Both the position numbers and the translations under genes were made by a program. Positions 10,421 through 12,226 of a DNA stretch of 13,009 nt are shown in pieces; the first letter of the stretch is position 1, and every line of letters begins with the position of its first letter. The stretch lies in UHGV virus genome UHGV-1799913. One strand, given 5' to 3'. The notes under the pieces were generated by a model that searched no databases, was not told the origin of the DNA, and was given only the letters and a program-made list of their open reading frames with translations. The stretch comes from a virus.

Positions 10421-10447
10421 AAGGGGCCGACATTTGTCGACCCCTTA
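10421..10447 (-). terminator. stem-loop terminator candidate at the 3' end of the tRNA-like element
   Basis: Minus strand AAGGGGTCGACAAATGTCGGCCCCTT (10-bp stem with one mismatch) followed by a T-rich tract CTTCGTTTTAT. It could also act on plus-strand read-through from the upstream operon. Confidence 0.4.
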
Positions 10448-10539
10448 AATAGGGTGCGGGGTTCGAACCCGCGGTACGGGTTTATAGCCCGTACGCCTCA
10501 TTATCAGTGAGGTGCCATCAACCACTCGGCCAACCCTCC
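10448..10539 (-). tRNA. tRNA-like element, type II (long variable arm), anticodon GAU by fold; imperfect acceptor stem, no encoded CCA; possible pseudogene or non-canonical phage tRNA
   Basis: Minus strand GGAGGGT-TG-GCC-GAGTGGTTGAT-GGC-A-CCTCA-CTGATAA-TGAGG-CGTACGGGCTATAAACCCGTACC-GCGGG-TTCGAAC-CCCGC-ACCCTAT. Cloverleaf has a canonical T-arm (GGTTCGAAC) and Ser/Leu-like D-loop (GCCGAGTGGTTGA), a 7-bp variable-arm hairpin, and a 5-bp anticodon stem with loop CU-GAU-AA. The acceptor has a G2-A71 mismatch and a G1-U72 pair. Confidence 0.5.
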
Positions 10540-10629
10540 GTTGTACCTTGCAAGCAAGGGGTGAAAGAAATATAGCATTATGATTTAAAAAATAAAGTGA
10601 ATTATCATCGAATAACATTACCAAAAATA

Positions 10630-10680
10630 GCCATGACCACACTTTTCTTTTGTATAATCCCTCCCAAAGTATCGAGGGGG
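10630..10680 (+). promoter_or_regulatory. putative promoter (extended -10 TGTATAAT) with adjacent inverted repeat
   Basis: tgtataat at 10651-10658 followed directly by ccctccc-N-gaggggg (10659-10680), then AAGGAGAAG RBS and the GTG start at 10702. Confidence 0.35.
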
Positions 10681-10701
10681 ACTCATCAAGGAGAAGATAA
10701 A

Positions 10702-11043
10702 GTGAAATATTTGGCGATCACGTTGTTAGGAATTGGCTTTCTTATGCCCCATGCCGTTGAAGCAAAGGAATATGTATGCTCTGGAATAGCAAGGAGTATG
10801 ACCTCAAATGAAGTAAAATCCGGCGAAGTAAAGGCAAATATAACTGACATCGGAAATTCAATAACAGTTAACTTTGGGACCATTTCTTACACCACAAGCA
10901 AGATTAGGCCAGAAAAACCGGAAGGAAAGACATACCCATCTGGTGCGACTAAAGAGGGCAATATTATACAAAGACGTGGAGATGGTGATTACCGATTCTT
11001 TCAAATGTCTCAGGGTGATGTAGTGCAATTTACCTGCAAATAA
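10702..11043 (+). CDS. small secreted/periplasmic protein (113 aa) with Sec signal peptide; moron-type cargo gene
   Basis: GTG start at 10702 after AAGGAGAAG inside track ORF 10597..11043. N-terminus MKYLAITLLGIGFLMPHAVEA-KE has a hydrophobic core and an AxA cleavage motif. Mature protein has two Cys (YVCSG, FTCK). AT-rich codon usage by eye. Confidence 0.55.
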   Translation: MKYLAITLLGIGFLMPHAVEAKEYVCSGIARSMTSNEVKSGEVKANITDIGNSITVNFGTISYTTSKIRPEKPEGKTYPSGATKEGNIIQRRGDGDYRFFQMSQGDVVQFTCK

Positions 11044-11142
11044 AATTGAACGAATTTCAACCAGGTTAGGCGGTTTTTATTTTTGGCTGTGCCCCCGTTC
11101 GCTGTAGCACTGGTGAGGGCTAACCTGCCGGAACTATGCCAG

Positions 11143-11198
11143 TCGAAACAAATCGCGGCCTGACCTATAATCCCCTCCATAACTCAAGGGGATTTTTT
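11143..11198 (+). promoter_or_regulatory. putative promoter (-10 TATAAT at 11166-11171) with 7-bp inverted repeat sequestering the SD
   Basis: tataat followed by ATCCCCT-N10-AGGGGAT (11170-11193), then TTTTTT and the ATG at 11199. The AGGGGA arm is also the only SD-like element for the downstream gene. Confidence 0.35.
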
Positions 11199-11381
11199 AT
11201 GTCAAACGAAGAAATGACACCTGCCGAAAAATACAAAGCGGCGAGGAAGCGATATAAAAAACACTGGCTTCAATCCGATATAGCAAACGCTAAGCGCTTT
11301 GAGGCTGATGATGTGGCCCCTGTAGATGGTTACAGGTCTCCTTACGAAACGAGGAAAAAAAGAGGGAGAACAGCAGATTAA
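11199..11381 (+). CDS. small basic protein (60 aa), first gene of the moron cassette
   Basis: Start at ATG 11199 inside track ORF 11136..11381: [25 protein letters not shown]...RKKRGRTAD, Lys/Arg-rich. Stop overlaps the next start (TAATG). Confidence 0.45.
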
Positions 11382-11635
11382 TGTCACATTTTAATATCGC
11401 AGAAAAATCGAAAGAAGAGCAGGACAAGGCTAACGTGGACCTGGCTGCCAGTGGCGTAGCGTACAAAGAGCGCCTGAACATGCCGGTTATCGCTGAGGTG
11501 GTGATGCGTGAGCAGCCCGAGCATTTGCGTGATTACTTCCTTGAGCGTCTGAAGTTTTATCGCGAGAAGTCGATAGATTTACCAAGGGCATCCGATCCGC
11601 GGTACATGGAAATGGCTGATTCTAATAAAAAATAA
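11381..11635 (+). CDS. hypothetical protein (84 aa)
   Basis: Track ORF; start coupled to the upstream stop. No family recognised. Confidence 0.5.
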
Positions 11636-11686: not shown

Positions 11687-12226
11687 GTGATTAATATCAT
11701 TGTTGATTCCAATGCTTGGAATTTTTTACATGTGAGTGGGATCTCCTTAAGCAACGAGCTTCTTAGCGATTATAACTTTCAGATAACATTAGAGGTGTCT
11801 CGTGAATTGCAGGAGTTAGTGGGCAAGGAAGGGAAGGAAGCTCTTTATGAATTCTTTGTAAGTGAGACTCAGTCGCTTGAAGAGCCCTTATGCTATTTTG
11901 GTTTTTACAATGAGTCAGTGCCTGCTGATGAACAGCGGTTTGGTGGATTTGGTGTTGGCGGGTTCGCATCTGTTCATCAAGATGATTATTTTCAGAAAAC
12001 ATTCCGCCAAATAAAATCATCAAAGCGTGGTATTTATTATGGCAATGAAGCTGACATGCTGATCGGGTCAAGAGGAATTGGGAACACTTTCATACTAACA
12101 GAAGATAATAATAAGTCAGGCCCGATGAAAGAGGCTGAGAACACTATCTTTGTTTCAAGAAAATTTCCTATGACTGTGGAGCAGTTTAAGGAATATCTTG
12201 ATCTTGAAATCTCAAAAACTCTTTAG
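11687..12226 (+). CDS. hypothetical protein (179 aa) with possible PIN-like nuclease motifs
   Basis: GTG start 10 nt after AGGAGG. N-terminal hydrophobic strand with Asp (IIVDSNAW), a downstream Glu-containing helix (TLEVSRELQEL), and a C-terminal NEADMLIGSRGIGNTFILTED segment recalling the VapC/PIN pattern (D...E...D...T-x-D). Assignment is motif-level inference only. AT-rich by eye. Confidence 0.5.
   Translation: MINIIVDSNAWNFLHVSGISLSNELLSDYNFQITLEVSRELQELVGKEGKEALYEFFVSETQSLEEPLCYFGFYNESVPADEQRFGGFGVGGFASVHQDDYFQKTFRQIKSSKRGIYYGNEADMLIGSRGIGNTFILTEDNNKSGPMKEAENTIFVSRKFPMTVEQFKEYLDLEISKTL

Follow-up and report, generated by a model that had tools for sequence, protein, structure and literature searches.

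The lambda-type morons bor and lom, together with the superinfection-exclusion lipoproteins Cor (phi80/N15) and Llp (T5), are small exported envelope proteins. Their genes are optional and foreign in composition, and they presumably benefit the lysogen or the infected cell by way of its envelope. Phage T4 encodes Spackle (Sp), a small helical protein that Sec exports to the periplasm, where in soluble form it inhibits gp5, the tail lysozyme. A further group, the periplasmic lysozyme inhibitors MliC, PliC and ACP, shares an eight-strand barrel, a disulfide that joins beta-1 to beta-8 and an inhibitory loop 4, with less than 20% mutual identity; the MliC and PliC motifs are SxSGAxY in loop 4 and YxxxTKG in beta-6 (PMC5507604). 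Here we describe a gene at positions 10702-11043 of a 13,009-nucleotide stretch of the UHGV virus genome UHGV-1799913; we call this whole stretch the window. The gene encodes a protein of 113 amino acids (aa) that belongs to a familiar kind, the small exported proteins that temperate phages carry as optional cargo. On balance we lean towards reading its product as an exported periplasmic binder carried as temperate-phage cargo. The features of the gene and its product are as follows.

10702-11043, + strand: secreted-protein open reading frame (ORF), GTG start at 10702, TAA at 11041-11043, 113 codons
10688-10693, + strand: Shine-Dalgarno sequence AAGGAG, 8 nucleotides (nt) 5' of the start codon, as read from the sequence
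10702-10764, + strand: GTG start and predicted signal peptide, residues 1-21 (MKYLAITLLGIGFLMPHAVEA), in which n-, h- and c-regions can be told apart and V-E-A occupies -3 to -1
10765-11040, + strand: mature chain, 92 aa, 10.1 kDa, pI 9.0, a predicted eight-strand up-and-down beta-barrel
10777-10779, + strand: codon of Cys26, in strand beta-1 of the model, invariant in nine family members
11035-11037, + strand: codon of Cys112, in the last strand (beta-8), invariant in nine family members
10909-10980, + strand: residues 70-93 (PEKPEGKTYPSGATKEGNIIQRRG), hyper-conserved, from the end of loop 4 through beta-5 and loop 5 to beta-6, a putative binding surface

The ORF at 10702-11043 is a real gene under strong purifying selection. 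Pairwise Nei-Gojobori comparison of six lineages gave ratios of non-synonymous to synonymous divergence (dN/dS) of 0.09-0.20 at a dS of 0.8-1.6, which is near saturation, and the coding alignment of these lineages is free of indels, frameshifts and stops. The GGAG of the Shine-Dalgarno sequence is kept at the same spacing from the start in all aligned loci. A longer frame, 10597-11043, is given by the mechanical ORF list, and one public gene call for the ORF (P0001, 136 aa) begins at an ATG at 10634. We take the 113-aa product to be the correct one because its homologues show no similarity 5' of 10651, where the alignment with related loci begins, and because the starts in that alignment coincide at GTG or TTG. 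An earlier note on this DNA had placed a 113-aa protein at 10702-11043, and these coordinates are exact. It had also pointed to an AT-rich setting: the ORF has a GC content of 40.4% (36% at third codon positions, GC3) against 52.6% across the window, and does look foreign. In RefSeq the gene product is entered as a 'hypothetical protein' (WP_039022277.1).

The start codons of the family deserve a short comment (comparison loci are given by our L numbers). GTG is used in the window copy at 10702 and in L002, L003, L009, L011 and L017, and TTG in L006, L008 and L010; among the family start codons read, ATG occurs only in the L012 and L013 copies. Such GTG or TTG starts nearly throughout the family suggest that translation is deliberately modest.

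Export by Sec with cleavage by signal peptidase I calls for a positively charged n-region, an h-region of 10-15 residues and small residues at -3 and -1. The predicted leader has all of these sequence hallmarks: K2 is followed by a 13-residue hydrophobic core, Y3-M15 (11-residue Kyte-Doolittle mean up to 2.48), then P16, V19-E20-A21 and K22. By inspection of its sequence it carries neither a lipobox nor a twin-arginine motif. The cleavage motif is found in nine of nine family members, with A21 (-1) invariant and A, V or I at -3, and across these nine the rest of the leader is more variable than the mature chain (mean majority fraction 0.65 for the leader, 0.75 for the mature part). Consistent with a cleaved leader, residues 1-21 of the full-length AlphaFold model have low confidence (predicted local distance difference test, pLDDT, of about 50), and the fold begins with its first strand at residue 22. 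From these features we infer a periplasmic location for the mature protein. The mature chain holds exactly two cysteines, Cys26 and Cys112, invariant in all nine members. The predicted Sec signal peptide, with its cut between VEA and K22, and the single cysteine near each end of the mature chain, had both been proposed before, and both stand.

An AlphaFold2 model of the mature chain, built from an input of only eight sequences, reached a pLDDT of 93.0 and a predicted template modelling score (pTM) of 0.83. The mature chain is confidently predicted to be an eight-strand up-and-down beta-barrel, with strands at residues 2-11, 17-28, 33-36, 41-44, 59-61, 67-72, 75-80 and 85-91 (mature numbering). 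In the model these eight strands follow one another in sequence order and are joined by turns of 2-5 residues, apart from loop 4, which has 14. Judging by these ranges, antiparallel pairing of strand 2-11 with strand 85-91 would set C5 of the mature chain opposite C91. We infer a Cys26-Cys112 disulfide, joining the first and last strands, because both cysteines are invariant and because the strand register is suitable.

Conservation is concentrated in one part of this model. The 20-residue window of lowest entropy covers precursor residues 72-91, and 13 of the 24 invariant alignment positions of the mature chain fall within precursor residues 70-90. Loop 5 (TKEGN) is almost invariant in the family.

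How might such a protein act? Judging from its sequence, the 113-aa precursor would leave the cytoplasm through Sec, and signal peptidase I would cleave it after Ala21. The 92-aa mature chain would then fold into the barrel of the confident prediction, and barrel closure would be stapled by the Cys26-Cys112 disulfide, which could form in the oxidising periplasm. Its action would most likely be stoichiometric, the protein binding and blocking an envelope or periplasmic target through its conserved surface; this role is suggested by the lack of enzyme-like features together with the conserved surface stretch at residues 72-91. Transcription would take place at least within the rightward early (nin) operon, and maybe also in the lysogen from a weak promoter of the gene's own that consists of a -10 element only. 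Our best guess for the target, though a rather unlikely one, is a peptidoglycan hydrolase: the lysozyme of an incoming phage or of a competitor, or else a c-type lysozyme from an animal. To an infected or lysogenic cell this would bring envelope protection or superinfection exclusion.

The more specific versions of this proposal are less probable. By analogy with the systems described above, the protein might act like a periplasmic inhibitor of a peptidoglycan hydrolase or of another envelope factor; this is our leading specific guess, even if we regard it as rather unlikely. More doubtful again is the idea that it founds a new class of phage-borne periplasmic inhibitor, with the architecture of MliC, PliC and ACP (eight-strand barrel, disulfide from first to last strand, conserved surface from loop 4 to beta-6) and no detectable sequence relationship to them, that would neutralise a peptidoglycan hydrolase or another envelope-acting factor of a rival phage, a competitor or the animal host. 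If this last idea were true, the gene would be a mobile determinant of exclusion or lysozyme tolerance in E. coli, Klebsiella and Citrobacter. If the protein did block an enzyme that acts on the envelope, or an incoming phage, there would be one more small determinant of phage resistance or lysozyme tolerance, simple to assay and carried by temperate phages from one clinically relevant member of the Enterobacteriaceae to another; the protein would also be another minimal disulfide-stapled barrel recruited as an inhibitor. For now, the gene joins a great many other prophage cargo genes without characterisation. Its main value lies in being a clean and well-delimited candidate, with 92 aa, a confident model and an obvious conserved surface.

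The likeness to MliC and PliC (PF09864) and to the Neisseria ACP is one of size and architecture. These are exported proteins of about 90-100 aa with an eight-strand antiparallel barrel, and the phage protein is modelled with eight strands in meander order, a cysteine on each of beta-1 and beta-8 and a long conserved loop 4 with P-S-G-A. The family pattern at the junction of loop 4 and beta-5 is P-[SA]-G-x-T; the P-S-G-A is present, and its A is not conserved. Unlike MliC and PliC, the family is phage-borne rather than chromosomal.

Several results count against a periplasmic binder of this kind, and we gather them here. None of the nine members matches PF09864 at E ≤ 10. With hhalign the probability was 3% when E. 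coli MliC was the partner and 0.2% for an alignment of 12 MliC/PliC sequences. Neither SxSGAxY nor YxxxTKG is present in the family. In Foldseek searches of the PDB with the full-length and mature models no chain was found at E ≤ 0.001, and the solved MliC/PliC chains (2f09, 3f6z and 4mir) and ACP lay outside the top 50. The best PDB neighbour, the barrel of Cap15, has a template modelling score (TM-score) of 0.54, a match of general topology. On the side of expression, no -35-like hexamer could be read from the alignment at a spacing of 16-18 nt in any lineage, and there is no extended -10 of the form TGnTATAAT in the window. We also searched the PDB sequences with the family profile, and found no match at E ≤ 10. 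Membership in MliC/PliC was rejected by sequence, as PF09864, the PDB profile search and hhalign were all without a match.

The structure prediction and fold search that the earlier note had called for thus came out in two ways, with a confident barrel model but no significant neighbour in the PDB. A Foldseek search of BFVD likewise returned nothing at E ≤ 0.001, and the neighbours there are uncharacterised phage proteins. The cyclic-dinucleotide receptor domain of Cap15 is, like the model, a minimal eight-strand barrel (root-mean-square deviation 4.2-4.5 Å), and the C-terminal barrel of NHBA has TM-scores of 0.40-0.47 to the phage protein model. However, with E-values of 0.1-0.25 and identities of 9-12%, the likeness to both is one of general barrel topology only. 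Furthermore, Cap15 is a cytoplasmic or membrane effector domain and NHBA a surface lipoprotein domain, whereas the phage protein is predicted to be periplasmic.

The comparison with bor, lom, Cor and Llp is one of lifestyle. As with these genes, the phage protein is small, predicted to be exported and encoded by optional cargo of foreign composition. Unlike them, it is by sequence neither a lipoprotein nor an outer-membrane barrel, and searches of Pfam and PHROGs found no sequence similarity to proteins of this type. The gene also differs from bor and lom in lying in the nin or int-proximal early region and not in the late region. T4 Spackle offers what we propose as a working model, in which the phage protein would block the peptidoglycan hydrolase of an incoming phage. 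Unlike Spackle, the phage protein is all-beta in the model, and no PHROGs sequence match links the two.

A word-indexed search of 5.8 billion proteins recovered six clusters at 71-98% identity, and an exhaustive HMMER profile search of 1.84 billion representatives added three further true clusters at 45-50% identity, all of which carry the leader and both cysteines. Three weak extra HMMER matches were set aside; the two that were inspected are long repetitive proteins and were taken as spurious. A lone 39-residue match in Butyrivibrio, among the GTDB species representatives, was also spurious. By these searches the family is tiny, at about nine clusters, uncharacterised and confined to temperate phages of enterobacteria. 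The named members come from prophages of Escherichia, Citrobacter, Klebsiella and Raoultella and are all labelled 'hypothetical protein'. The gene is present in 11 of 5,426 complete E. coli genomes and in none of 50,697 sequenced phage records (tblastn included). Neither the protein nor family members matched anything in Pfam, PHROGs, NCBIfam or PADLOC, and a literature search by protein accession found no mention. A homologue of known and unrelated function would have spoken against a cargo protein; the family searches turned up no homologue of known function.

The window comes from a prophage that sits beside kch in E. coli. The prophage has lambda-like exo/bet/gam genes, a CI-like repressor, O/P replication genes, a nin region and Q, with lysis, head and sheathed-tail genes downstream and an integrase at the kch end. 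The secreted-protein gene belongs to the nin region, where it is flanked by the lambda O/P-like replication genes and by Q, so that the location inside a prophage given in the earlier note is borne out for a lambdoid E. coli element. The host prophage (L001, NZ_CP063473.1 1957423-1998273) is itself a mosaic: its early region is lambdoid, with tRNA-Asn and tRNA-Thr after Q, its head genes are lambda-like, and its tail module is of the sheathed (myovirus) type. At least 80% of a 2.9-kb stretch around the gene is shared by only 2 E. coli records.

A good example of how the gene moves comes from its relatives. In Klebsiella prophages it occupies the same nin-region position, co-oriented with its neighbours, in the order Ead/DUF551-type genes, secreted-protein gene, DNA polymerase III theta homologue and NinB. 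In a divergent subfamily (45-55% identity) it is found at the opposite end of the early region, with recombination/DUF1317 genes on one side and xis-int on the other; its place in the genome thus depends on the subfamily, with two such places observed. In phage HK639, P, ren, theta and NinB are arranged likewise, and the secreted-protein gene is missing. At this junction HK639 carries a single element, TCTATAATCCCCTC-N8-GAGGGGGTTTT, directly 5' of a 60-aa ORF and theta, which its depositors labelled a terminator; two copies of an element of this type enclose the secreted-protein gene in the window. The absence of the gene at the HK639 junction and the bracketing copies imply that it behaves as optional, mobile cargo. 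HK639 served as comparator here, as a search for an 'empty site' in E. coli genomes yielded mosaic fragments only.

A moron is recognised by its own promoter, its own factor-independent terminator, insertion between genes that adjoin each other in related phages, distinct composition and expression from the repressed prophage. For this gene we found the distinct base composition (40.4% against 52.6% GC) and, from the HK639 comparison, the optional insertion. The earlier designation as a moron-type gene therefore stands as far as optional cargo and foreign composition go, but the promoter amounts to a lone TATAAT and there is no terminator directly after the stop codon (fold z = +1.45). The features around the gene that bear on its expression and boundaries are these.

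10651-10661, + strand: conserved block TGTATAATCCC, with a perfect -10 TATAAT at 10653-10658; candidate promoter or left half of a boundary or terminator-like element
10659-10683, + strand: imperfect inverted repeat CCCTCC...GAGGGGG, directly after TATAAT, without a U-run
11063-11166, + strand: long structured non-coding stretch, a putative 3' untranslated region or boundary element
11169-11198, + strand: hairpin AAUCCCCU/AGGGGAUU with U6, the nearest terminator-like site 3' of the gene, 125 nt downstream
10651-10683: left copy of a nin-region element, without a U-run
11164-11198: right copy of the nin-region element, with U6
2835-2885 and 3529-3584 of L009: copies of the nin-region element, flanking an inserted reverse-strand 161-aa gene
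2287-2320 of HK639 (L014): single copy of the nin-region element, annotated as a terminator

The ten-base TGTATAATCC is invariant in six lineages whose synonymous sites are saturated, and homology among the loci starts exactly at the 10651 block, after at least three unrelated upstream contexts. In the divergent L017 subfamily a perfect TATAAT stands 47 nt 5' of the start. These observations bear on the promoter that the earlier note had assigned to the gene. A perfect and conserved TATAAT is there, but it has no -35 and no extended -10, and a sigma-70 scan of the window did not call TATAAT at 10653-10658. There are also zero occurrences of TGNTATAAT in the window. We considered TGTATAAT as an extended -10 promoter and rejected it, as the consensus is TGnTATAAT; since the window holds no TGnTATAAT, the promoter claim was downgraded.

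The sequence TATAATCCC occurs twice in the window against an expectation of 0.03. Its second occurrence, 513 nt downstream, forms the A-rich 5' flank of the hairpin with U6, and being shared with a terminator-like element it suggests that the 10651 block may be a module-boundary element. The conservation of the block may then reflect a terminator-derived boundary at which modules recombine. However, TGTATAATCC is invariant also where the hairpin arms are lost or changed, which implies a sequence-specific rather than a structural constraint. The repeat at 10659-10683 folds at -10 kcal/mol, no better than shuffles. In L006 and L009 its stem is perfect over 9 bp, and the L002 group lacks it. The hairpin after TATAAT is thus unsupported as an RNA structure under conservation, the consensus fold being weak at -4.7 kcal/mol.

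Downstream of the gene, the hairpin at 11169-11198 (-10.1 kcal/mol, z = -1.7) overlaps the second TATAATCCC and abuts the ATG of the 60-aa ORF; its counterpart in HK639 is annotated 'terminator'. The scan of the window missed it because its loop is 10 nt. This arrangement of hairpin and U6 is found only in the window lineage and in L009. In other lineages the theta gene follows 19-60 nt after the stop, and in L006 and L008 the next gene begins 19 nt after it.

Three other readings of the gene were weighed. There is next to no chance that it is a spurious ORF in AT-rich intergenic DNA beside a tRNA gene. Such an origin would fit the lack of any family annotation and the label 'hypothetical protein' in every record, but it is refuted by dN/dS of 0.09-0.20 at saturated dS across six lineages free of frameshifts and stops, and it sits badly with a Shine-Dalgarno sequence and start codon kept across loci and with an AlphaFold model that is confident although built from just eight sequences. 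It is very improbable, too, that the product is an outer-membrane or lipid-anchored conversion protein, either a Lom/Ail-like barrel or a Bor/Cor/Llp-like lipoprotein. The eight predicted beta-strands and the signal peptide would suit this, and several BFVD neighbours are named 'Lipoprotein', at TM-scores of 0.46-0.58 and E-values of 0.016 or worse. However, when the end of the signal peptide was tested for the lipobox pattern [LVI][ASTVI][GAS]C, the residues before Cys26 proved to be E-Y-V, and in relatives E-Y-T, E-F-S, E-K-F, E-H-M or D-K-I; furthermore, Cys26 lies 5 residues past the predicted cleavage site, and the h-region ends 10 residues earlier. Barrels of the Ail/Lom/OmpX type have about 150 aa, eight membrane-spanning strands and a C-terminal aromatic beta-signal. 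In contrast, the mature chain has 92 aa, its strands of 3-12 residues are too short to span a membrane as a barrel, and it ends in K, E, N, R or Q. Pfam gave no hit to the families of Ail/Lom or Bor. Both the lipoprotein and the outer-membrane barrel thus fail their defining tests of lipobox, length and C-terminus.

It is quite possible, on the other hand, though we do not favour it, that the gene is a delayed-early lytic gene rather than a moron for lysogenic conversion, transcribed only from pR through the nin region. On this view TGTATAATCC would be no promoter but the left part of a terminator-like element that marks a boundary where lambdoid modules recombine. Once exported, the protein would do its work while infection is under way, and could, for instance, block superinfection or shield progeny from envelope debris. 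In every locus the gene points the same way as the early genes that flank it, at gaps of about 50 nt, and this shared orientation with the pR early operon implies that it may simply be delayed-early. The promoter evidence points the same way, with no -35 in any lineage, no TGNTATAAT in the window and a silent sigma-70 scan, as do the GTG or TTG start codons. Furthermore, TATAATCCC...GAGGGG recurs downstream with a U-run, its HK639 copy is annotated as a terminator, and copies of the element flank the inserted reverse gene in L009. Set against this, TGTATAATCC is invariant in L002 and L010 despite lost or changed hairpin arms, the divergent L017 subfamily also has its TATAAT 47 nt 5' of the start, and low GC with variable location is typical of cargo expressed in the lysogen. 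The exported periplasmic binder, carried as cargo, is the reading that we retain.

The boundary sequences themselves show some regularities. The repeated nin-region element has the form TATAATCCC(C)TC - loop - GAGGGG(G), with or without a U-run. Its right copy (11143-11198 region) contains a promoter-like match, TCGAAA-17-TATAAT (10 of 12 positions), and abuts the ATG of the next ORF. The element may have two roles, ending transcripts that arrive from upstream and serving cassettes as a recombination joint or promoter. Downstream of the gene, the region 11060-11200 folds at -52 kcal/mol (z = -3.4; none of 200 shuffles was as stable), with a long hairpin first and the terminator-like one after it. 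As read from the alignment, the structured stretch is kept in L009 with one compensatory change of a G-C to an A-U pair, and it has no match in Rfam. It could be a 3' untranslated region, a small RNA or an element that acts at the level of DNA.

Two neighbouring genes can be described further. The 60-aa ORF at 11199-11381 (+ strand) matches phrog_16632 (E = 3e-34) and adjoins the theta homologue (11381-11635); HK639 has a clear homologue in the same place (L014 2320-2502), unannotated in its record. A second stretch of low GC (about 37-42%) at 11687-12226 (+ strand) encodes a 179-aa protein whose only match is phrog_26388 (E = 4e-84), a family with a function-less label; Pfam, NCBIfam and PADLOC gave none. 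Judging by its composition and position, this may be another nin-region cargo gene.

Finally, a tRNA gene at 10448-10539 (- strand) lies upstream of the secreted-protein gene and is called 'Ile (GAU)' by ARAGORN and RefSeq. It is a 92-nt class II tRNA (Rfam tRNA, 46.4 bits) whose variable arm is 21 nt long and contains a stem of 7 bp. G2 and A71 are mismatched, the discriminator is U73, and CCA is not encoded. The tRNA gene has an extended -10 of its own (TGCTATATT) and a terminator at 10421-10446 on the minus strand; among the 11 E. coli genomes with this tRNA the identity is 100%. Relatives are found in L015 (746-837, - strand) and L016 (10536-10627, - strand). Two IMG/VR contigs have the same tRNA body (86 of 92 positions identical) with the loop CUUAGGA (UAG, G37) in place of CUGAUAA (GAU, A37). 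Of the six differences, three concern positions 34, 36 and 37; another two amount to a compensatory exchange, G-C to A-U, within the variable stem. Relative to these near-identical phage copies the tRNA looks anticodon-switched, from UAG/G37 to GAU/A37, and it is possibly a mis- or re-coding tRNA. As an object it is more unusual than the secreted-protein gene itself.

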